DNA from: Patescibacteria group bacterium
GTDB taxonomy: Bacteria > Patescibacteriota > Patescibacteriia > JAHJFT01
Reading direction: 5' to 3'
NCBI GenBank assembly: GCA_028710985.1
Contig: JAQTTB010000001.1
Location: 19,280-83,279 of the forward strand
Length of the DNA: 64,000 bases
Numbering within the stretch: position 1 is the first letter of the stretch; each line of letters begins with the position of its first letter. Position numbers and translations under genes: made by a program. The notes beneath the pieces were generated by a model, which was given only the letters and a program-made list of their open reading frames with translations, ran no database searches and was not told the DNA's origin. This document shows, one piece after another, positions 3,407 through 59,394 of this stretch.

Positions 3407-3991
3407 CTATATCGAAATCCGACAAAATCGACGAATTTCCACTTTCTCCCCAAGCGTCACGATCCGGTCATTGATCAAGTCCGCAATCGTCTTATCTTCG
3501 TCCTTTATAAATACCTGGTTCATAAGGCAAACCTCGCTGTAATACTTGGCAAGCTTGCCCTCCATAATTTTATCCATGATTGCTTCGGGTTTTCCTTCGG
3601 CCACGAGTTCTTCGCGGTACATCTCCTTCTGTTTTTCCAGAATCTCCGCGGGAATATTTTCGGGCTTGAGATACAGCGGCTCGGTTGCCGCAACCTGCAT
3701 GGCAATGTCATGCGCCAGTTCTTTGAATATTTCGTTACGGGCAACGAAATCGGTTTCGCAAAGAATCTCAATCATGGCTCCGACCTTGCCGTTTGCATGT
3801 GTATAAGCGTGCACTATTCCTTCCTTCGTCACCCTTTCGGCGCTCTTTTTCGCCGCCTTGATCTGGCCTTTTTTCTTTAAAATTTTCACCGCTTCGTCGA
3901 TATCGCCAGCGGCTTCATCCAGCGCCTTCTTGCAATCAAGCATGCCCGCGCCAGTAATTGTACGCAATTTTACCACTTCTTGTGTTTCCAT
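3407..3991 (-). CDS. tsf: translation elongation factor Ts (short form)
   Basis: 194-aa ORF with the N-terminal UBA-like motif LRTITGAGMLDCKKALDEAAGDIDEAVKILKKKG. It directly follows rpsB, the conserved rpsB-tsf order. Confidence 0.9.
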   Translation of the reverse strand: METQEVVKLRTITGAGMLDCKKALDEAAGDIDEAVKILKKKGQIKAAKKSAERVTKEGIVHAYTHANGKVGAMIEILCETDFVARNEIFKELAHDIAMQVAATEPLYLKPENIPAEILEKQKEMYREELVAEGKPEAIMDKIMEGKLAKYYSEVCLMNQVFIKDEDKTIADLINDRIVTLGEKVEIRRFCRISI

Positions 3992-4012
3992 ATTTTTTAT
4001 TTTTATTAGTGC

Positions 4013-4732
4013 TTATTTTTTACTCTCCGGAGCCGCACCCCGCTTTGCCTCTTCCCGCCCCTCTTTCACCGCCTCGGCAACATACCGGGTCATGAGCTCA
4101 ATTGATTTAACCGCGTCATCATTTGCCGGTATGCAATAAGCAACGCCGGTTGGATCAATATTCGTGTCACAGAGCGCAACCAGTTTGACGCCGCGGTTAT
4201 CGGATTCGGCGCGCGCGGTTTTTTCGTATTTCAGATCAACCACGAAAATCGCATCCGGAATTTTATTGAGTTCCTGGATACCGCCGATTCTCTGGCGCAA
4301 TGTTTCAATCTCGCGCGCGAAAACCAATTGCTCCTTTTTTGTATATTTCTTAAGTTCGCCTTTTTCCTGGCGCTTCTGCAGATCACGGAACTTCCGGAGC
4401 AATATGAGAATCTCACTAAAATTCGTAAGCATTCCGCCGAGCCACCGCTCGGTAAGATACGGCGCCCCGCATTCAATGGCGTAGCGCTTCACGATATCCT
4501 TGGCCTGGCGCTTCGTGCCGAGAAATAGCACGACTCCGCCGCGCGCCACGGTTTGGCGCACGAAATCCAGAGCCTTCTCCAGGTATTTCTGCGTTTCCTC
4601 CAGATTGATGATGTGTACATTATTTCTCGCGCCGAAAATGTACGGTTCGGCTTTGGGATGCCATCGGCCGGTCTGGTGCCCAAAATGCACGCCGGCTTCA
4701 AGCATCTCCAATATTGTTGGTAGTTTTGGCAT
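4013..4732 (-). CDS. rpsB: 30S ribosomal protein S2
   Basis: 239-aa ORF: LLEAGVHFGHQTGRWHPKAEPYIFGARNNVHIINLEET..., plus a basic/acidic C-terminal tail. Confidence 0.95.
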   Translation of the reverse strand: MPKLPTILEMLEAGVHFGHQTGRWHPKAEPYIFGARNNVHIINLEETQKYLEKALDFVRQTVARGGVVLFLGTKRQAKDIVKRYAIECGAPYLTERWLGGMLTNFSEILILLRKFRDLQKRQEKGELKKYTKKEQLVFAREIETLRQRIGGIQELNKIPDAIFVVDLKYEKTARAESDNRGVKLVALCDTNIDPTGVAYCIPANDDAVKSIELMTRYVAEAVKEGREEAKRGAAPESKK

Positions 4733-9450: not shown

Positions 9451-9593
9451 TTAGTCAAAAGTTAAAAGTCAAAAGTCCAAAGTCAAGTCTAAAATTTTTT
9501 AGTCCAATCTCTCCAGCTGAATGTATCTATAACTTTTTGACTTTTAACTCAACTTTTAACTTTAGACTTTAGACTTTTAACTACAAAACAAAC
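9451..9593. repeat. intergenic inverted block of 7-nt periodic words (AAAGTYN x5 versus CTTTWRA x5-6)
   Basis: The left block, 9451-9494, carries GTTAAAAGTCAAAA (9461-9474) and AAGTCTAAA (9485-9493). The right block carries their complements: TTTTGACTTTTAAC (9535-9548, 14/14), GACTTTTAAC again (9572-9581) and TTTAGACTT twice (9561-9569, 9568-9576). It fills the 173-nt gap between two co-directional GT genes. Confidence 0.75.
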
Positions 9594-10712
9594 CTACCAA
9601 AATATAATTAGTCGTGCAATTAAAAAATAAAGATTAAACAACGGATTAGCGATTTTAAGCGCCCAATTATTAATTTCCTGATACTCAATCTTCCCTGTGA
9701 AATGACGAAGCACTTCTTTATCCCCGATACTTCTCGCGCGCGCGATTCTCGCGTGCTTGACGAAGAGATACGGCCAGTGCCACGGCGCGATCATCCAAAG
9801 ATATGCCTTAAGCTTCTCGCGCCACCAGCCGGACTTGATGGAAAAAATAAACTGCCCGAGCTCCATCGCGAGAAAGGCCGGCAGAAACACGAGCTGGGTC
9901 AGAAATTTATAATCGCAAAAATATAAAATAAAACGATTTCGCTCCATCCAGTAATATTTTGAAATACTCCGGCTGAATTCATATTCGTGATACACAACCG
10001 ACCGCGGCGCGAGCACGTTCACGAACCCGCCAAGCCGGAGCCGCCAGCCCAGATCCAGGTCTTCGTGATACGCAAAAAGTTTTTCATCAAAAAGCCCGGC
10101 ATCGCGCAAGGCGCCGATCTTGTATAAAACCCCGGCTCCGGAGCCGTAAGCAATTTCCGGAAGCCCGATAAAATCGCGTTCGCTCCGCGCCGCGCGCGAA
10201 CCGCCGCAAAATCCGAATCCCAGATAATGAATCATGTTGCCCGACGAATTAATGAGTCCGCGCTCGGGCCAGAGCGCGAGCAGAGACTGCACCGAACCGA
10301 TTTTCTGATTTGATTCCGCCGCATCGACGGCATGGCGCAAAAAATCCGGCTCAACCCGCGTATCGTAATTTATTAAATAAACATAATCAAAACCCTGCAC
10401 CTGCCTGCCGGTAGGCAGGGCCATTGCATACTCAATCGCGCGGTTGTTTCCGCCGGCAAAGCCGAGATTCGTGTTCATGGGCATAAAGTGAATCTTCGGC
10501 AGCCCCTGGGGCGGCGACTGCATTATCTCCAGAATGCGCTCGCGCGACCCGTCGGTTGACGCATTGTCAACAATAACAAGCTCAACCGCCTCCCGCGGAT
10601 AATCCAAGAGCGCGAGCGATTCAATCCAGGCATCTAAAAAACGCCGCGCCTTCCAGAGCACGGCGATAATTGCCACTCGTTTTACATCCTGATTATTCAT
10701 GCTTTTTTGCAT
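9594..10712 (-). CDS. glycosyltransferase family 2 (rhamnosyltransferase-like)
   Basis: VAIIAVLWKARRFLDAWIESL...VIVDNASTDGS, then DYVYLINYDTRV and YHEDLDLGWRLRLGG. The ORF-track start at 10838 is an extension overlapping the upstream gene. ATG at 10712 (MQKSMNN) or 10700 is more likely. Confidence 0.8.
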   Translation of the reverse strand: MQKSMNNQDVKRVAIIAVLWKARRFLDAWIESLALLDYPREAVELVIVDNASTDGSRERILEIMQSPPQGLPKIHFMPMNTNLGFAGGNNRAIEYAMALPTGRQVQGFDYVYLINYDTRVEPDFLRHAVDAAESNQKIGSVQSLLALWPERGLINSSGNMIHYLGFGFCGGSRAARSERDFIGLPEIAYGSGAGVLYKIGALRDAGLFDEKLFAYHEDLDLGWRLRLGGFVNVLAPRSVVYHEYEFSRSISKYYWMERNRFILYFCDYKFLTQLVFLPAFLAMELGQFIFSIKSGWWREKLKAYLWMIAPWHWPYLFVKHARIARARSIGDKEVLRHFTGKIEYQEINNWALKIANPLFNLYFLIARLIIFW

Positions 10713-11705: not shown

Positions 11706-11731
11706 AAAACTACTTTCGCATCAATATTATC

Positions 11732-11960
11732 GTCATTCCCGCGAAGGCGGGAATCCAGAAACAGTATACCTTGCGGATTCGATTTATAAACTGTCACACA
11801 AATCACTCCAAAGCGGATTGCAGTCTTCAATGAATTTAATCTTTTAGACCCTTTCCACTTATTGGAGGATGCAAATATAGAACTGCCGATAATCGGACAT
11901 AGCATAAATAAGTAGCCCCGAGATTAATTGGTTGTGGATTCCCGCCTTCGCGGGAATGAC
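11732..11960. repeat. MITE-like unit bounded by 26-bp perfect terminal inverted repeats, each a REP-type hairpin
   Basis: GTCATTCCCGCGAAGGCGGGAATCCA (11732-11757) is the exact reverse complement of TGGATTCCCGCCTTCGCGGGAATGAC (11935-11960). The arms are 177 bp apart. Each arm is itself a palindrome (ATTCCCGC-GAAG-GCGGGAAT). It occupies the gap between two co-directional genes. Confidence 0.7.
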
Positions 11961-11964
11961 AGTT

Positions 11965-43028: not shown

Positions 43029-43263
43029 TAAAATCCCTCTCTGCCTCTCCCTTCCTGCCTGCCGGCAGGCAGGTTGCATACTTTTGGTTACAAAAGTATG
43101 TCCTGCTGAAAGCAAACAAGAGTGGTGCTAGAAAAGATAATTATTGCCCAGACAGGTGGCAGGCAAGAACTTAAAAATCCCAATATTAAAACAACTTGTA
43201 CGATAATATATAATAGGATTCCCCCGGTACATTGAACCTGGATTCCCGCCTTCGCGGGAATGA
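43029..43263 (+). repeat. mosaic palindromic-unit repeat, copy A
   Basis: In order: AAAATCCCTCTCTG..CTCTCCC; the 20-nt perfect palindrome CCTGCCTGCCGGCAGGCAGG (43053-43072); the hairpin CATACTTTTG-GTTA-CAAAAGTATG; a ~130-nt body; and the REP hairpin TGGATTCCCGCCTTCGCGGGAATGAC (43238-43263). 43051-43263 aligns with 56985-57198 at roughly 85-90% identity by eye. Confidence 0.85.
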
Positions 43264-43370
43264 CAAAAGTAAGGCAGGAATGACAAATGGCGCTAAGATT
43301 TTTATAGCAAGATTCCCGCCGGAGCCTGCCCTCATGCAAATGGGGGGGGTGGCTAAAAATATCGTCAACC

Positions 43371-54074: not shown

Positions 54075-55229
54075 TTACGCCGTTTCCAGCGCGAACTTGC
54101 ATTCCGGCTTCAGATCGAAATAAAGTCCGGAAATGTCGCGGCAGATGTCTTTCCAGTTATATTTTTCATTCACGAAAATCTTCGCGCGCGCGCCCAGCTC
54201 TTTCAGATTTTCGGTTTGCGGCAAATACGTCTCAAGCTTACGGATTAAATCTTCAACATTCTTATTTTCAAAACTGATTCCCGCTTCACTCACGACTTCC
54301 ATATTTTCCGGGATATCGCTCGCGATCACCGGCAAACCCCAGCCCATCGCTTCAAGCAAAGCGATCGGCAAACCTTCGGATTCGGACGGATGAACCAGCG
54401 CGTAAGCGTTGCCAAAAAGCGCATTCAACGGCTCGCCGTTCTGAAAACCGGTAAATACAATAGATTCGTCGCCGGCCGCCATCTCATGAAGTTCTTTCAC
54501 GTAATCATCTGTAAAAGCCGAGTCGCCGACGATCACGAGTTTTTTATTGCCAATTATCTCCGGATTACGGAATTTTAGAGTTTTATAAGCATCAATCAAA
54601 TAATGGGCGCCCTTATGACGCACCAGCCGCGAAACCATAATAATATACTCTTTAGGCTCAAGACCAAACTTTTTAAGATACTCGGTGTCGGCCGGATTCT
54701 GCATCCTAACGCCGTTCGGAATATATTGAGTCATGGAATCATAAGCTTCGGAGCAATACTGATTCAAAGTACGCGAAACCGTAATGGTGCGGTCCGCGAA
54801 ACGGCACGCTGACCATTCGCCAAGGCGAAGCATAGCGCGGGCAATAAATCCCCATTTTTGATGCTTGCGATCAATGCAGTGAAAAGTCACCACCACTTTG
54901 GTGCTGGGTCGCAAAATTTTCGGAAGCCACGAGAGTAGCGCCGGCCCGACGCCGTGAATGTGGATAATCTCAAAACCGCTCCGGCAGGCATGAATAATGC
55001 TCAAGAAAGTATGGCTAATGGCATCAAGATGCTTGGTCTTAAGGCTCGGGGTATAAATAAGATGCACCCCGTTAATCTGTTCCTCGTGGCCCTTTGAGTA
55101 CCACGGGCGACAGTATACAAAAACCTCCAGGCCGAGTTCAGCCAGGCCGCGCGAAAGCTCATCCACGTGGCGTTCAATACCACCGAAGATAGCCGGGATG
55201 CCTTTTTGTCCGATCATTGCTATTCTCAT
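54075..55229 (-). CDS. glycosyltransferase, GT4-like
   Basis: 384-aa ORF: MRIAMIGQKGIPAIFGGIERHV...ESEGLPIALLEAMGWGLPVIASDIPENMEVV. Confidence 0.85.
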   Translation of the reverse strand: MRIAMIGQKGIPAIFGGIERHVDELSRGLAELGLEVFVYCRPWYSKGHEEQINGVHLIYTPSLKTKHLDAISHTFLSIIHACRSGFEIIHIHGVGPALLSWLPKILRPSTKVVVTFHCIDRKHQKWGFIARAMLRLGEWSACRFADRTITVSRTLNQYCSEAYDSMTQYIPNGVRMQNPADTEYLKKFGLEPKEYIIMVSRLVRHKGAHYLIDAYKTLKFRNPEIIGNKKLVIVGDSAFTDDYVKELHEMAAGDESIVFTGFQNGEPLNALFGNAYALVHPSESEGLPIALLEAMGWGLPVIASDIPENMEVVSEAGISFENKNVEDLIRKLETYLPQTENLKELGARAKIFVNEKYNWKDICRDISGLYFDLKPECKFALETA

Positions 55230-55353
55230 ACCATGATTATTTGTAATGCGATTAATTTGTTATGTAATCTCATTAAATCCTCGTCTTGCCCGCCGAAATC
55301 CCGACCGAACGAAGTGAGCGTCGGGACGAAGGAGGGTCATTGCTATTCTCATA
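55214..55353. repeat. 17-bp direct repeat (TCATTGCTATTCTCATA) flanking a 106-bp insert that carries a REP-like hairpin
   Basis: Copies at 55214-55230 and 55337-55353, exactly 123 nt apart. The repeat contains the GT4 start (minus-strand ATGAGAATAGCAATGA). The insert contains ATCCCGAC-N15-GTCGGGAC (about 55298-55327). The upstream copy opens a 30-codon ORF, MRIAMTLLRPDAHFVRSGFRRARRGFNEIT*. Confidence 0.8.
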
Positions 55354-55413
55354 TTAAACAACCCACTATACCACATTTTTGCGTTTTTGTCAACTCTCGA
55401 GTCCGGCCAGCTC

Positions 55414-55442
55414 TTGACAAAACCCGCAATTTATGATATACT
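55414..55442 (+). promoter_or_regulatory. sigma70-type promoter upstream of the GC-rich lipoprotein gene
   Basis: TTGACA (55414-55419), 17 nt, TATACT (55437-55442). It leaves a ~215-nt leader before the ATG at 55665. Confidence 0.55.
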
Positions 55443-55664
55443 TTACCGTTAAAGTCAAAATGGAACAGTCGTATCTTATGACAAATTTTGGCTAAAGCAA
55501 GCCCTTTACAACCTTCTCCCAAGCGTCGAATCTACATTTTCTGGCTATTTTCAGCAATGGTTGGCACACAGTTCAACCCCACCTGCTCGGCTTATATTAT
55601 GCAGATTCATCGCTTAGGAGAAGCAAAACAACCTAAACGCAAAAAACACCGAGGAGGGTGTAAA

Positions 55665-56699
55665 ATGAAGAACTCCAGGATAGTGCTGATTCTCTGCGCC
55701 CTGGTACTGATGGCCTGCGAGACGAGGTACGTGGACGTGGGCGGCGAGCCCGACACCTCCATCGACACCGCGTCCGACAGCGTGGAGCTCTGCTCCGACG
55801 GCCTGGACAACGACATGGACGGCCTGGTCGACTGCAACGACAACGACGGCGACGAGAACTGCCCGCCGTGCGCGGACGCGTCAACCGACGCCGTGGCCGA
55901 CGAGATCGAGGACAGCGCAGAAACCGACGTCCCGCCCGTGGAGCTCTGCTCCGACGGCCTGGACAACGACTTCGACGGACTCGTGGACTGCAACGACGGG
56001 GACGACTGCTGCGATGAAGCAGTGTGCGTTACGAGCGAGCACTGCGCTTCGGAAGACGCTTCAAGCGACTCCGAAGAGGAAGCCGACGCAGTCTCCGACT
56101 CGGGTGCGGATTCGGATCCCGCCGAGGACCCCGTGCCTGACACTGATCCCGACACCGCCTCCGACCCGGATAGCGCAAGCGATCCGGACGCGGTCTCTGA
56201 CCCGGACGTGGTGGACGCCGAAGCCGACGCAGCTGACATCCTCCACTCCGGCCTGGCCACGTTCAAGTGGTGCCGGCCCATGACCATGGCGCGCCCCGAC
56301 CACATTCTCGCGGAATGCTTTGTCTGGGGAAGCCTCTATGAAAGCTGGGATGACTCCTGGGAGCTGGCAACCGGCTCTCCGGACTTCGTCGCACCGGCCG
56401 ACAGCGACTGCATCGAGTTCACCCTGCCAGATCTGGATTACACGCTCCTCGGAATAAGCGTAGAGTGCAACATCACTGCCTATTCCGACTCGGCGTACGG
56501 GCCGTGGGGACGCATCTACGCTCTCGGCGAGTGCACGTGCGGCGGCAGCTGTGTCGTAAAAGGCACGCTTACCGTCCGTTCCGGTCCCGACGCTGATGAC
56601 GCAACCGCCTTGGATCTCACGAGCCTAGTCGTGCAGAATCCGCGATGCGCGTCCCTGAGCGACCAGGCCGGCAACTACGTCCTCTCACCTATTCCATAG
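55665..56699 (+). CDS. GC-rich secreted lipoprotein with two TSP3-like Ca-binding Cys/Asp repeats and a poly-acidic linker
   Basis: ATG at 55665 is preceded by GAGGAGGG. Lipobox: [18 protein letters not shown]. Repeats: [29 protein letters not shown] and [24 protein letters not shown]. Then a D/S/P/A-rich linker and a ~160-aa Cys-containing C-terminal domain. The ORF-track TTG start at 55488 is rejected. Confidence 0.75.
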
Positions 56700-56718
56700 G
56701 GGGTTCGTCTCTCCCCAT

Positions 56719-56768
56719 GGGCAGGATAAGCAAGGTCCCCCCCTACCTTGCCCCTGCCCGCCTTTTTT
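56719..56768 (+). terminator. rho-independent terminator of the GC-rich gene
   Basis: GGGCAGG...CAAGGT-CCCCCCCT-ACCTTG...CCTGCCC forms a nested stem (56719-56759), followed by CCTTTTTT. Confidence 0.7.
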
Positions 56769-56809
56769 CAGCGAATCATGCAAATGATTCATTGAAAAAA
56801 GGCAAAAAT

Positions 56810-56844
56810 AAAAAACGCCCCGTGTTTACCGAGGGCGTTTTTTT
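56810..56844. terminator. second, bidirectional terminator hairpin
   Basis: AAAAAACGCCC-CGTGTTTACCGA-GGGCGTTTTTTT. Confidence 0.6.
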
Positions 56845-56984
56845 GTGCATCTTAGTCAGAACATGGGGTTCGGGGGCGCAACTGAGCATGGCGCTAGGAA
56901 GCAGTGAATTGCCTATTTGCCGAGAGCGAACCCGCCTGCCAACGCCTGGCGTAGGCCTGGCGGGCAGGTTTGCGACCCCGAAAC

Positions 56985-57384
56985 TTCCTGCCTGCCGGCA
57001 GGCAGGTTGCATACTTTTGGTTACAAAAGTATGTCCCGCTGAAAGCGAACAAGAGTGATGCTAGAAAACAATAATCAATACCCAGACAAGCGGCAGGCTG
57101 TGGCTAGAAAATCCCAATATTAAAACAACTTGCACGAAAATATTTAATAGGATTCCCCCGGTACATTGAACCTGGATCCCCGCCTTCGCGGGGATGACGA
57201 AGAGAGCACTTTGCCACTTACCGTCATTCCCGCGAAAGCGGGAATCCAGAAACAAAGCCCCTCCAAAATCCCTCTCTGACACGTCGCTCGCGAGCGACGT
57301 GTCTCTGTCTCCCCCTTCCTGCCTGCCGGCAGGCAGGTCAGCCACCCCGAAACTTTTTGGTTACTTTTTGGTTACAAAAAGTAA
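56985..57384 (+). repeat. mosaic palindromic-unit repeat, copy B (expanded)
   Basis: 56985-57198 parallels copy A, with the same palindrome, hairpin, body and REP. It is followed by an inverted second REP (57223-57248), then the AAAATCCCTCTCTG...CTCCC unit interrupted by the palindrome ACACGTCGCTCGCGAGCGACGTGT. A second CCTGCCTGCCGGCAGGCAGG follows (57317-57336), then the hairpin TTACTTTTT-GGTTAC-AAAAAGTAA. Confidence 0.85.
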
Positions 57385-57459
57385 CGCGCCGGAGGCAAGA
57401 GACCAGAGGTAAAAAGATGCAAGAAAAAAATGGGAGGCCCAAACGATTGTAGGAGGAAC

Positions 57460-57489
57460 AAAAAGACGTGCCTTTAAGCACGCCTTTTT
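57460..57489. terminator. bidirectional terminator after the 631-aa gene
   Basis: AAAAAGACGTGC-CTTTAA-GCACGCCTTTTT. On the minus strand it lies 10 nt after the stop at 57499 and is followed by a U-run. Confidence 0.65.
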
Positions 57490-57498
57490 ATAATATTT

Positions 57499-59394
57499 TT
57501 ATGGACGGACTTTTCCAAGACCCGCCGCCCGCGTGTCATGCGCAAGCTCGGTCGTAATCAACGGAGTGGCAAACGACAAATCTTTACCGATAAATTCATC
57601 ATGCGCCGTCACCTTTATCCAGTCAACGAGCGACGCCGCCGTGCCCGCCTGATCCGCGGTCGGCACAATTTCCACCTCAAAGCTCAGGCCGATCACGGCC
57701 CCGGATTCAGCTGTGGCCGAAAGCTCTTTAAGCGACCAGGTTATCATTCCGGTGTCCGGATTATAATTAATGCTGTCCCCGGCCGTCACGCTTGAAAGCC
57801 CGGCATATGTAACATTCGGGGCAAGTTTTGCCTGCAGAAACATGTTGGTCAGATCGCTTGTGGTTTTTGGCAAATTCCAGAAAACCCAATACTTGGTCGG
57901 TCTCTCGACCTTGGGCGGCATGGAACCACGGCCAAGCTGATCACCGGTTTCGGCCCAATAACGCGCGAATGCCTGACTCGCGAACGGCGTTATCATTTTT
58001 ATATCAATACGTCCAGTTTTATAAACCGCAGCCCCTTCTTCCCCTTCAACGCGGTAACTCGCCAAAACCGCGACAGGCATTGTTATATTCTTCTGCGACT
58101 CGAGCTGTGAAAAATCCGGATTACTTTTTAGATATAAGGCGCCGGATACTTTTTTTGTCTCGCCCGGCGCAAGGCCTGCCGCACTTTCTTTAAAATAAAA
58201 TCTTCCATCGCGAAATTCCATTCCCTCGATGCGCGCCGTATTTATTAAATAAGCATCGGCTTCAACCGCGAGAGCGACGTCGGAAAGCGCAAAGTCGCCA
58301 ATATTTTTATACGATACCACGACATCCATTTTCTCGCCCCAGCCGGCAACCGGTTCGGATGTATCATTTATACGTATAACCGCTTCAATCTGCGGCGGAA
58401 CAATCTGCGCCGAAGCGGCTAAAATCTCCTGGCGCGCTTTCTCTTCACCCGCGGTTACGTATGTTTCGAAATAAAAATTCGCGCGGCTGTCCGGACAGGC
58501 AAGATAGCCGCGAATTGTAATCTCACCCTCTTTCCCGGCCTCAAGGTCGCCAATTCTAAAAACATTTTCTAACATAGGGAGCGATGAACTCAAGTATTCA
58601 AACCCGGCGGGCCAATACGCGTGAACCTCAGCATTCACGAGAGCGGCGCTTCCTGTATTTTTATATTTAATCTTAACATCAATATCCTGATTATTTATCA
58701 GCTTTTCCGGAGCCTCAAGCTCGGCCCAGAACACGGAATCATCTATAGTATAGCTTGCGGTGAACGGCTTCTGCTCATTCTTGCCGTTCTCGGCCTGTGT
58801 GAATCCGAGCGTTGACCAGACGGTTTGTGAATCTCCAACCGTGCCCCAAACGCGTCCATGCAAACGCAGTCTCCCCTCTCCCCCTGGGGGCAGGGTTCCG
58901 ATATCCACAATATTTTTTGTTGCGTCGGTCTGCGCCGGAATCGTATCTAAAAGTTGAAAATTATTCGGCAGCCTGAAACTCCAATAAGCCTCGTCAAGTA
59001 TTGATTCCGAATCGTTCCGGTAAACCCAGACCACGCTCACTTCTCCGCCGCTCACGATCTCCTGCGGCATAACTGCGGTATCAATATGAATCTTGTCGGC
59101 AATCGAAGGCTTGTAAAAATAAATAAGTGTGACAAAAACCGAGAGCGCAATAATGAGTCCTAAAAGCGCCATATCCACCCAGAAAAGAATTTTGGCGCGC
59201 TTGTATTTGCCTTCATAGCGCGTTTCATAATGATCGCGAAGCCGCGAGGTAATGGCTTTCGCCGGCTGTAAGGCCACATTCAGTGTCCCAATAAAAATAT
59301 TACCTCGTCCTTTGTCGGCCGCGGATTTAAATTCCTGCGGAGTCATAACATCTTCCGACACATTGGTTAAATCAGTTGTTTTTTCTTCTGGCAT
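57499..59394 (-). CDS. single-pass membrane protein with repeated CARDB/DUF11-like beta-sandwich modules (hypothetical)
   Basis: 631 aa with a TM helix (ILFWVDMALLGLIIALSVFVTLIYFY). Repeated segments resemble IGTLPPGGEGRLRLHG, IGDLEAGKEGEITIRG and LAPGETKKVSGALYL. Confidence 0.55.
   Translation of the reverse strand: MPEEKTTDLTNVSEDVMTPQEFKSAADKGRGNIFIGTLNVALQPAKAITSRLRDHYETRYEGKYKRAKILFWVDMALLGLIIALSVFVTLIYFYKPSIADKIHIDTAVMPQEIVSGGEVSVVWVYRNDSESILDEAYWSFRLPNNFQLLDTIPAQTDATKNIVDIGTLPPGGEGRLRLHGRVWGTVGDSQTVWSTLGFTQAENGKNEQKPFTASYTIDDSVFWAELEAPEKLINNQDIDVKIKYKNTGSAALVNAEVHAYWPAGFEYLSSSLPMLENVFRIGDLEAGKEGEITIRGYLACPDSRANFYFETYVTAGEEKARQEILAASAQIVPPQIEAVIRINDTSEPVAGWGEKMDVVVSYKNIGDFALSDVALAVEADAYLINTARIEGMEFRDGRFYFKESAAGLAPGETKKVSGALYLKSNPDFSQLESQKNITMPVAVLASYRVEGEEGAAVYKTGRIDIKMITPFASQAFARYWAETGDQLGRGSMPPKVERPTKYWVFWNLPKTTSDLTNMFLQAKLAPNVTYAGLSSVTAGDSINYNPDTGMITWSLKELSATAESGAVIGLSFEVEIVPTADQAGTAASLVDWIKVTAHDEFIGKDLSFATPLITTELAHDTRAAGLGKVRP

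Follow-up and report, generated by a model that had tools for sequence, protein, structure and literature searches.

Within a 64,000-nucleotide stretch of a Patescibacteria contig (hereafter the window), one gene for an acidic lipoprotein (55665..56699, + strand; 344 aa; MDD4994911.1, PHW53_00320) carried a GC-rich synonymous composition that is a long-maintained property of the gene, and neither a recent import nor an assembly error. The explanation that accounts best for the whole, and that we judge somewhat more probable than its negation, is a surface lipoprotein module that was inserted once, whose GC elevation would be tied to recombination, and which would carry a variable surface head.

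The coding sequence (CDS) had a GC content of 0.641, with values of 0.64, 0.48 and 0.80 at the first, second and third codon positions (GC3 0.803). Among the 23 host-like genes in the window GC3 was 0.550 +/- 0.041 (maximum 0.632), so that in the GC3 comparison proposed by the preliminary description the CDS was an outlier (z = 6.2). At host codon usage its amino acid composition would give a GC3 of only 0.572. Codon shares in the CDS and the host were as follows: GAC 81 and 34%, AAC 90 and 32%, TTC 80 and 33%. Every two-fold pyrimidine box favoured codons ending in C (NNC) over those ending in T (NNT; NNC share 0.83), T-ending codons were depleted in every four-fold box, CGT and GGT included, and GAG and AAG were enriched. 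The dominance of G/C-ending codons noted earlier from the sequence was thus borne out, as was the description of a GC-rich island reaching with sharp edges from the ATG to the terminator. The GC shift began at the ATG (GC3 was already 0.93 in the first 40 codons) and stopped past the gene's own terminator, the terminator segment (56700-56768) having a GC content of 0.62 and the following 90 nt of 0.39. GC skew over the CDS was approximately zero, and no G4 motif was found on either of its strands. C3 exceeded G3 in all plus-strand window genes; the strong excess of C3 over G3 was therefore rejected as a mark of translational selection, the asymmetry being partly the strand skew of the window.

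The gene is a genuine monocistronic unit that has a promoter, a structured leader and a terminator of its own. The predicted sigma-70-type promoter (55414..55442, + strand; TTGACA-17-TATACT with a TG extended -10) matched at 11 of 12 positions and stood head to head with the equally near-consensus promoter of a GT4 glycosyltransferase gene (55393-55365, - strand). It was kept as TTGACA-17-(TG)GTATATT in lineages L001, L006, L007 and L008. The 5' leader of approximately 222 nt (55443..55664, + strand) had a GC content of 0.42, in agreement with the earlier statement that promoter and leader are host-like in composition. It contained a long hairpin (55513-55623, + strand; minimum free energy (MFE) -58.5 kcal/mol, z = -3.8), followed by AAAACAACC and a Shine-Dalgarno (SD) sequence, GGAGG (55653-55657, + strand), 7 nt upstream of the ATG. 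Orthologous leaders folded into an equivalent hairpin, while the sequence of its basal stem differed lineage by lineage. The intrinsic terminator (56719..56768, + strand) comprised a GC-rich two-tier hairpin (56719-56759) with a C-run loop, then the U-run GCCUUUUUU. Equivalent terminator hairpins lay 3' of the orthologues, five with a C-run loop; that of L008 was visible in the aligned sequence and absent from the MFE fold. Promoter, structured leader and terminator were conserved along with the CDS across lineages, contrary to the proposal that a bare CDS had moved alone. An Rfam search of 55000-57600 returned sub-threshold chance matches only.

A Ser/Thr-rich antisense open reading frame (ORF) of 232 aa (55607..56305, - strand), already suspected of being spurious, was a by-product of composition, because its stop codons need sense Tyr, His or Gln codons, which are missing from the acidic part of the protein. 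Its third codon positions were the same sites as the third positions of the sense frame. Comparable antisense ORFs were present in some orthologues only and with different extents, and a real overlapping gene was rejected.

Orthologues of the lipoprotein gene were found at the same locus, between a DUF11 surface-protein gene and the GT4 gene, in six other lineages. With the window these made up seven lineages of one Patescibacteria clade, all from independent assemblies. The gene for one orthologue, P0028, sat between GT4 and DUF11, and its wider neighbourhood also matched the window; the metagenome loci L006-L010 and L012 had the same GT4/lipoprotein/DUF11 arrangement. GTDB representative genomes included one sibling only. 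Neighbouring genes of the window shared 51-77% protein identity with those of the other lineages. In distant relatives (L013-L038) DUF11 was followed directly by GT4, without the lipoprotein gene, and because of this absence from the locus the module must have been inserted once, in the clade ancestor. It entered between the DUF11 and GT4 genes and was then inherited there. The broader group included high-GC relatives with a locus GC content of 0.60-0.67.

Several earlier proposals failed at this point. Recent import of a bare CDS was contradicted by the orthologues at the same locus in six lineages, four of which were equally GC-rich, and the suggested look at sibling genomes found the gene in all six other clade lineages. 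A search for a high-GC donor by the taxonomy of the matches gave no donor taxon; relatives of the head domain were Patescibacteria orthologues only. Integrase and transposase genes were absent nearby, the window contained no tRNA gene, and the CDS was not flanked by repeats; a dispersed repeat lay 3' of the gene, with another copy at 43038-43270. Of the hallmarks of a recent island, atypical composition was observed, while absence from related genomes, mobility boundaries and compositionally matching foreign relatives were not. To read atypical GC3 as recent transfer is wrong here, since syntenic orthologues show the same anomaly.

GC3 of the lipoprotein gene was 0.80-0.87 in five of the seven lineages and 0.61-0.63 in the branch formed by L001 and L010. 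In the five lineages the gene had GC3 values of.866,.795,.826,.857 and.803, against neighbour means, in the same order, of.41,.46,.38,.61 and.55. Background GC3 thus ranged from 0.38 to 0.61 across lineages. The sister lineages L008 and L009, whose DUF11 proteins were 84% identical, had DUF11 GC3 values of.35 and.60 and lipoprotein GC3 values of.83 and.86. Leader GC was 0.33-0.46 in all lineages, with the composition jump at the ATG, and the adjacent GT4 and DUF11 genes showed no GC3 gradient. Four-fold sites of the neighbouring genes were saturated between lineages; in DUF11 the same base stood at only 32-44% of these positions in most lineage pairs. Since GC3 stayed high while the background varied and neighbouring synonymous sites were saturated, a force acting on the CDS alone must hold it up.

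Sequence comparison among the lineages indicates that the gene is a mosaic, with heads swapped between close relatives and internal repeats in concerted evolution. L001 and L010 were 75-90% identical in nucleotide sequence over the leader and N-terminal part, 23-51% exactly at the head domain (9528-10009) and 80-98% right past the stop codon. The head domain of the window protein was nearest to that of L001 (46%), while the neighbouring genes of the window were nearest to those of L006 and L007. Repeats within one protein were 77-91% identical at the nucleotide level, compared with a mean of 64% between proteins, and the lipoprotein evolved faster at the protein level than its neighbours. Compared with every sampled lineage, the window allele showed no stretch of unusual similarity (at best 71-83% over 46-254 nt), and no recent exchange involving this copy was seen.

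Recombination-linked GC bias was favoured, with moderate confidence, as the cause of the high GC3. In this view lineages exchange modules comprising the head domain or the repeats, gene conversion homogenises the pair of internal repeats, and slippage of repeats turns the spacer over. The resulting heteroduplexes might be repaired with a GC bias, or a gene pool richer in GC might supply alleles again and again; either would keep GC3 high and detach it from the mutation bias of each genome. Recombining bacterial genes have been found to have higher GC3 (PMC4450053), and the lipoprotein cassettes of Borrelia vls, described below, are a further precedent (PMC11499132). Two observations stand against this cause: the GC jump was sharp at the ATG, although GC-biased conversion should take no notice of a start codon, and no GC3 gradient extended into GT4 or DUF11. 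Published effects of GC-biased gene conversion in bacteria also appear much smaller than the differences of +0.25 to +0.45 observed for this gene, the cited study showing a difference that is positive in sign.

A bolder reading, which we regard as a tentative possibility, is that the clade keeps one lipoprotein gene as a dedicated recombination module, in which anchors permit exchange of heads and repeats and the restricted set of GC-rich codons arises from conversion or from selection for allele similarity. The anchors in this reading would be the promoter and leader, the repeat modules and the terminator hairpin. In its selection variant, the codon set would keep the DNA of diverged alleles similar enough for recombination. 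If true, the arrangement would parallel vls-type antigenic variation at the level of populations, and would be an example from nature of one gene whose composition has long been uncoupled from its genome.

Selection on synonymous sites unrelated to tRNAs is a doubtful alternative. Here the GC-rich message, flanked by hairpin and terminator, would be a long-lived, nuclease-resistant mRNA of a major envelope protein. Such selection would account for an anomaly confined exactly to the CDS in every lineage and for a GC3 nearly constant at 0.80-0.87 on any background, as expected of a selected optimum; the near-consensus promoter with extended -10, strong SD, stable leader hairpin and strong terminator would suit high expression. 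Yet the divergent GT4 promoter was equally near consensus and GT4 had an ordinary GC3, and the L001/L010 branch had the same promoter and terminator with a GC3 of only 0.61-0.63. No selection of this size on the GC content of a single bacterial mRNA is known to us.

Translational selection, in which the gene would be expressed at an extremely high level and C-ending codons would be optimal in these organisms, is unlikely. Many bacteria share the direction of its NNC preference (0.83), towards which the genes rpsB, tsf and gap (for ribosomal protein S2, EF-Ts and GAPDH) also leaned slightly. These three genes, however, reached an NNC preference of only.39-.44 and a GC3 of.56-.59. Against an NNC share of approximately 0.32 in the other minus-strand genes, this means that selected codon bias in the genome is weak: it amounted to approximately 0.4 log-odds units, while the lipoprotein gene would need 1.2-2.2. 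Small genomes with few rRNA operons usually show weak selected codon bias. Moreover, the loss of T-ending four-fold codons together with the gain of GAG and AAG resembles general GC pressure and not a tRNA-matched codon set.

Recent acquisition of the CDS from a high-GC donor, or in a weaker form recent xenologous replacement by the allele of an unsampled GC-rich relative, is improbable. Codon usage like that of high-GC bacteria (actinobacterial usage is the familiar case), the high-GC relatives in the broader group (locus GC 0.60-0.67), the cassette replacement that does happen in this gene (L001/L010) and the lack of any sampled allele close to that of the window would fit it. A separate recent import would nevertheless be needed in each of four other deeply diverged lineages; the window protein was no nearer to outside sequences than to its syntenic orthologues, a search of 1.84 billion representatives yielded no relative of its head domain from outside the clade, and the gene edges lacked mobility genes, tRNA genes and flanking repeats.

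Still less credible is a passive relic, that is, a module from a high-GC donor or ancestor that has yet to ameliorate, even though distant relatives lack the module at this locus, which places its insertion in the clade ancestor, and the GC3 of 0.61-0.63 in L001/L010 could be read as partial amelioration. Neighbouring four-fold sites were saturated between lineages, and background GC3 had moved between 0.35 and 0.60 since L008 and L009 split while the lipoprotein gene stayed at 0.83 and 0.86. Its silent sites cannot be frozen, because the protein evolves faster than its neighbours. An assembly chimera, in which sequence of a high-GC organism would have been joined to the contig by mistake and which the preliminary description had allowed from composition, can be dismissed: two exact junctions would be needed, at the start codon and the terminator, both flanks were host-specific (the conserved divergent promoter pair and leader 5', the dispersed repeat 3'), and the same gene lay in the same place in independent assemblies of different samples from NCBI MAGs, Logan, JGI and ENA, which excludes it.

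The product was very acidic (24% D+E, 3% K+R) and is predicted from its sequence features to be a membrane-anchored surface lipoprotein. Its signal peptide (55665..55718, + strand) agreed with the PROSITE PS51257-type pattern (Lys or Arg near the N-terminus, here K2 and R5; a hydrophobic stretch; [LIVMFWSTAG]2-[LIVMFYSTAGCQ]-[AGS]-C, with the Cys at approximately residue 15-35), placing the lipobox Cys at C18 and upholding the earlier lipoprotein assignment. In all seven lineages the lipobox was found at residues 17-20 in agreement with this pattern.

Two acidic disulfide modules followed: module 1 (aa 41-69; 55785..55871, + strand) with four Cys and module 2 (aa 93-127; 55941..56045, + strand) with six. 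The corresponding DNA copies (55781-55848 and 55937-56004) were 88% identical. Module 1 was annotated from NF033662, to which the window protein scored 46.8 bits in two stretches, above the curated whole-protein cut-off of 41 bits. Four of the six tested passed this cut-off; the window protein, L001, L006 and L010 were above it, L009 was below it (34.8), and L007 and L008 had no match. Module 2 aligned with the teneurin C-rich domain (7plp_A) over 34 residues (E = 0.002), covering the DxxDNDxDGxxDCxDxDCC core, six Cys and the acidic and Asn Ca2+ ligands. The teneurin pattern, E..C.D..DND.D...DC.D.DCC....C.....C., comprises six Cys, eight conserved acidic residues and one Asn (PMC9058538); it was present in repeat 2 and, with four Cys, partly present in repeat 1. 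An AF2 model of repeat 2 (pLDDT 76) had as its sole Foldseek PDB matches 7plp and 7bam, both teneurin-4 C-rich domains (rmsd 1.4 A over 21 columns), at an E of approximately 1 because the domain is tiny, so that the structural match is not statistically significant. The teneurin-4 domain binds Ca2+ at three sites, two TSP type-3-like and one LDLR-A-like, and its disulfides pair 1-3, 2-5 and 4-6 (PMC9058538). A Pfam search of the window protein gave no family at E <= 0.1, TSP_3 included. Of the preliminary proposal of TSP3-like Ca-binding repeats, the two copies stood, with the NF033662 score and the teneurin alignment behind them, and the formal TSP_3 assignment did not. The repeat modules are probably Ca2+-binding.

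An acidic, low-complexity D/S/P/E spacer and putative stalk (aa 128-189; 56046..56231, + strand) led to a C-terminal Cys-containing head domain (aa 190-344; 56232..56696, + strand), the same succession as had been outlined earlier. The spacer region of the orthologues contained DPDP or VDTS tandem repeats. The head is probably beta-rich and belonged to no known family: profiles from Pfam, NCBIfam, PHROGs and PDB gave nothing credible, and matches to RGM (E 0.6-0.9) and Beta_helix_3 (E 0.1) were rejected. It had one true relative (P0028) among 1.84 billion representatives, and full-length relatives of the window protein were Patescibacteria orthologues only, other matches sharing the repeats alone. 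The head domain therefore appears restricted to a small Patescibacteria clade. In an alignment built from the seven lineages, two head types emerged as distant homologues of one fold, 24-38% identical. An AF2 model of the head from a two-sequence alignment was unusable (pLDDT 36). The L007 head alone gave no match in a word-indexed protein search, a type of search that also missed the window protein with the seven-sequence alignment. A phage or viral origin was rejected, with no tblastn match in phage records and none in IMG/VR with the type-B head alignment.

Judged by this architecture, Ca2+-bound repeat modules would stiffen the base of the protein and the acidic stalk would carry the variable head outward through the envelope. 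The head may mediate contact under diversifying selection, for example with a partner cell, a host surface or a phage. In Patescibacteria, a group in which little is understood of cell-surface interactions, the protein is a candidate variable surface contact molecule. When a single gene has an atypical GC3, recent horizontal transfer is the routine reading; it misleads here, and island callers that work from composition would give this gene a wrong label throughout the clade. A GC3 of approximately 0.8 amid genome drift from 0.38 to 0.61 calls for a gene-specific force, and the gene offers a clean natural test of GC-biased gene conversion against selection on mRNA composition in bacteria.

Several known systems resemble parts of this gene. 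NF033662 proteins have the acidic double-disulfide repeats, and many are also lipoproteins; they share the repeats only, their repeat numbers and C-terminal parts are unrelated, and the name describes a repeat and not a function. TSP_3 repeats and the MopE-type metal-binding motif (PF11617) likewise consist of Asp-rich, DxDxDG-like Ca2+ motifs stabilised by disulfides, and some proteins sharing the repeats of the window protein carried PF11617, but neither family matched the window protein in Pfam even at E = 0.1. The TSP3 parallel was drawn for the teneurin C-rich domain in the teneurin study (PMC9058538). That domain of teneurin-4 (7PLP) is like repeat 2 in its core, its six Cys and its predicted Ca2+ ligands, and lies between EGF repeats and a TTR domain in an animal synaptic adhesion protein, whereas the window lipoprotein has two copies at its base, the first with only four Cys. 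The teneurin-type C-rich predicted calcium module would thereby extend to bacterial lipoproteins.

The vls cassettes of Borrelia, which encode the surface lipoprotein VlsE, have 49% G+C in genomes of 28.6% in all strains, and strong selection maintaining this composition was inferred (PMC11499132). Like the window gene they combine a surface lipoprotein with conserved high G+C, and they run on gene conversion. At the vls locus, however, silent cassettes form an array, GC skew is strong and the coding strand carries G-runs. No such features were found for the window gene: tblastn and blastn searches of the 64-kb window yielded neither silent cassettes nor a second gene copy, and a vls-like system was rejected on these grounds. 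Exchange was observed here from one lineage to another, with no sign of switching inside a single cell. CdiA-CT, Rhs-CT and phage tail-fibre tips also join a conserved N-terminal part to a swapped C-terminal domain. The lipoprotein gene had no immunity-like gene 3' and no toxin, PHROG or phage-collection match. Its swap breakpoints lie at the domain boundary and the stop codon, as in genes with swappable cassettes, but in contrast to polymorphic toxins its heads are homologues of one fold and not unrelated toxins.

The GC-rich lipoprotein gene (55665-56699, + strand; 344 aa; ATG 7 nt after a GGAGG) had a coding sequence GC of 0.641 and GC1, GC2 and GC3 values of 0.64, 0.48 and 0.80. GC3 was 0.550 ± 0.041 (maximum 0.632) in 23 window genes, a reference set from which a separate low-GC block was left out, placing the lipoprotein gene 6.2 SD off and bearing out the preliminary description of a one-gene GC-rich island. 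The GC3 expected from its amino acid composition under host codon usage was 0.572. The composition change at its edges was abrupt: the 222-nt leader (55443-55664) had a GC of 0.42 vs. a GC3 of 0.93 already in the first 40 codons, and the terminator segment (GC 0.62) was followed by 90 nt with a GC of 0.39. The lipobox, two repeats (88% identical in DNA), acidic spacer and Cys-containing C-terminal domain (head domain, aa 190-344) were all found as had been described, together with a near-consensus, extended -10 promoter ahead of the gene and a hairpin terminator after it. The long antisense ORF (232 aa) was spurious, as had been supposed. Its third positions coincide with sense-frame third positions, and stops in its frame arise only opposite sense Tyr, His or Gln codons; since these are missing from the acidic part, the ORF is a by-product. 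In one orthologous locus, L008, an alternative same-strand frame open across the whole 1.1-kb gene (3410-4507, - strand; 365 aa, Arg/Pro/Gly-rich) is taken as another by-product of stop-poor composition.

The low-GC block (25 kb, 16055-41254; gene GC 0.29-0.44, GC3 0.31-0.49 vs. about 0.55 elsewhere) formed a second compositional island of opposite bias. It encoded a polysaccharide cluster: Polysacc_synt flippase, asparagine synthase, methyltransferases and glycosyltransferases. A free-standing gene of the 23S rRNA intervening-sequence protein family (PF05635; 41397-41789, + strand) was located between this cluster and a glycosyltransferase (GT4) gene.

The lipoprotein was identical to MDD4994911.1 (PHW53_00320), annotated as hypothetical, from a Patescibacteria group bacterium MAG; the remaining matches of the first protein search covered the repeats and acidic region only. 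A high-GC donor had been proposed; instead, the sole true relative of the C-terminal domain in an exhaustive HMMER scan of 1.84 billion representatives was P0028 (338 aa; C-terminal domain 47% identical; same architecture), which occurs in a further two Patescibacteria MAGs and in two SRA assemblies. Its gene is arranged as in the window, head-to-head with a GT4 gene and tail-to-tail with a 632-aa DUF11 (surface-protein) gene. Farther out the neighborhoods also agreed: GHL15/FG-GAP and GT genes lie to one side, with HTH_17, ECF sigma factor and DUF5667 genes to the other. When the DUF11 neighbor was used to scan metagenomes, further sibling loci emerged, L006-L012 (DUF11 51-59% identical), and the lipoprotein gene was present in every one reaching its position (L011 ends short of it). 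In the distant loci L013-L038 (DUF11 24-32% identical) GT4 directly followed DUF11 with no module between. Because the module is present in the siblings and absent from these loci, its insertion is placed once, at the base of the clade.

GC-rich composition persisted across lineages. GC3 of the lipoprotein gene was 0.803 in the window (neighbor mean 0.55), 0.866 in L006 (0.41), 0.795 in L007 (0.46), 0.826 in L008 (0.38), 0.857 in L009 (0.61) and 0.860 in L012, which belongs to the L006 lineage. The anomaly was milder in the P0028 branch: 0.614 in L001 (about 0.47) and 0.626 in L010 (about 0.49). Leaders had a GC of 0.33-0.46 in each lineage preserving one. Between-lineage protein identity of the neighbors was 51-64% for DUF11 and 65-77% for GT4, except in the sister pairs L008/L009 and L001/L010. 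Very probably the locus carries an old module, syntenic and inherited vertically, whose GC-rich coding sequence is actively maintained.

Signals common to the lineages were paired promoters arranged head-to-head, a stable hairpin in the leader, an AAAACAACC stretch ahead of the SD and a two-tier terminator hairpin. Because these are conserved, the whole transcription unit was inherited and not the coding sequence alone, and its noncoding parts have a host-like composition. The leader hairpin (55513-55623; also in L001, L006, L007, L008 and L009; z = -2.8 to -5.6) preceded the conserved stretch and SD, and its basal stem (about 12 bp) differed in sequence between lineages with pairing kept. It had no Rfam match and may be an uncatalogued leader element. 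The terminator hairpin (56719-56759) had a C-run loop in most lineages, kept as (U)CCCCC(C/A) in the window, L001, L006 and L009, and its stems changed by compensating substitutions. The L008 pattern occurred in the aligned sequence only, its MFE fold being without the hairpin; the L007 loop was different, and L001 and L010 carried two or three terminator-type hairpins in tandem. The 800-bp gap from the lipoprotein gene to DUF11 was filled by REP-like palindromes (GGATTCCCGCCTTCGCGGGAATGAC) and a dispersed repeat of about 230 bp (56971-57201 and 43038-43270; 85-96% identical); further repeat or palindrome sites were 11725-11963 and 57218-57255, so that both elements are found again at other places in the window. 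On the other side, the start of the GT4 gene (17 nt, codons MRIAM) had an exact copy 123 nt upstream (55214-55230 and 55337-55353, minus-strand sense). The duplication gives rise to an upstream ORF of 30 codons, MRIAMTLLRPDAHFVRSGFRRARRGFNEIT, and between the two copies is a 106-nt insert that contains a GC hairpin. The same layout occurred in L007 (9407 and 9510; uORF MRIAMTRAPDFVGAGQARQ) and was absent from L001, L006 and L008; it may represent a leader-peptide regulator or a small insertion that duplicated its target site.

The NCBIfam acidic double-disulfide repeat NF033662 passed its cut-off in the window protein and in L001, L006 and L010, fell below it in L009 (34.8 bits) and was absent in L007 and L008 among the orthologues tested. 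Pfam TSP_3 had no match in the protein. Repeat 2 aligned (E = 0.002) with 7PLP, the C-rich domain of teneurin, and the alignment took in all six Cys as well as the Ca2+ ligands. In that domain three Ca2+ are bound, at two thrombospondin type-3-like sites and one LDLR-A-like site (PMC9058538). An AF2 model of the repeat (99-row alignment; pLDDT 76) had teneurin-4 as its only PDB match, without statistical significance. Searches of Pfam, NCBIfam, PHROGs, PDB and phage collections gave no match to the head domain. The repeat family is already catalogued, and the head is an undescribed family restricted to the clade. Surrounding genes had envelope and glycan functions: GT4s, Wzy_C/TPR, subtilase, GHL15/FG-GAP and DUF11. 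The architecture suggests a membrane-anchored acidic stalk, stiffened by Ca2+, that bears a variable head. A protein built this way would serve in contact or recognition and would be under diversifying selection.

At this locus L001 and L010 represent almost one and the same organism (DUF11 91% identical). They agreed at 75-90% of nucleotides across the leader and N-terminal part and at 80-98% immediately past the stop, but at only 23-51% over a stretch delimited exactly by the first head-domain codon and the stop (9528-10009); this is a clean cassette replacement. The two head types (24-38% identical; Trp, Cys, Asn and Gly positions conserved) are distant homologues. Relationships were discordant: the window head was of the L001 type (46% identical), although the neighboring genes of the window were nearest to those of L006 and L007. 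L008 and L009 had signal peptide and head in common and different repeat types. Repeats inside one protein were 77-91% identical in DNA vs. a mean of 64% between proteins, a mark of concerted evolution; spacers were built of lineage-specific tandem repeats. No recent sharing of the window allele was seen among the sampled orthologous loci.

Because this gene, unlike its neighbors, shows several kinds of recombination, and because two published cases tie recombination to raised GC, recombination-linked GC bias is tentatively ranked first, whether through biased conversion, through allele traffic from a GC-richer pool or through both. Recombining core genes have higher GC3 (PMC4450053), and in Lyme Borrelia, whose genomes have 28.6% G+C, the vls antigenic-variation lipoprotein cassettes are kept at 49% (PMC11499132). 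Exchange or conversion would keep GC3 high through GC-biased repair or import of GC-richer alleles. This ranking is weakest on the sharp start-codon boundary and the effect size, both of which would better fit selection on mRNA composition, a less likely but credible alternative.

Codon usage bears on translational selection. In the five GC-rich orthologues A3 and T3 were down to 0.06-0.11, with C3 at 0.54-0.63 and G3 at 0.24-0.26. Every T-ending four-fold codon was depleted, including CGT and GGT, and GAG, AAG and CAG were raised, a pattern of general GC pressure and not the typical translationally optimal set. The C-over-G excess is partly regional strand skew: C3 exceeded G3 in all plus-strand window genes and the reverse held in all minus-strand genes, the lipoprotein gene being on the minority strand. 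This third-position skew was strong across the window, in which the lipoprotein gene is one of few genes on the C-rich, presumably lagging, strand; cumulative GC skew dropped steadily across 51-64 kb. Since rpsB, tsf and gap were near ordinary usage (GC3 0.56-0.59; NNC share 0.39-0.44 vs. about 0.32 in other minus-strand window genes), selected codon bias in this genome is weak. The lipoprotein gene (NNC share 0.83; excess over its neighbors 1.2-2.2 log-odds units) lies far beyond it, and translational selection is unlikely.

Recent acquisition of the bare coding sequence, as had been suggested, is still less probable: the orthologue occupies the same place in sibling loci, so import would have to be repeated independently in each lineage. 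A passive relic of an old transfer is contradicted by saturated neighbors and a shifting background, and is highly improbable. At conserved residues, the four-fold sites of DUF11 agreed in base in only 32-44% of positions, close to the random level; between L008 and L009 (DUF11 84% identical) DUF11 GC3 moved (0.35 vs. 0.60) while the lipoprotein genes stayed at 0.83 and 0.86. The assembly chimera raised as an alternative is virtually excluded, because independent assemblies carry the same gene in the same place.

Calls of horizontal transfer that rest on composition meet a useful counter-example in this gene, which also allows tests of what keeps GC high in bacteria, with mechanism and function as proposals. 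Within the 64-kb window it differs from vls in lacking the silent cassettes, GC skew and G-runs that define that locus, but resembles it in that a single-gene composition anomaly has been conserved.
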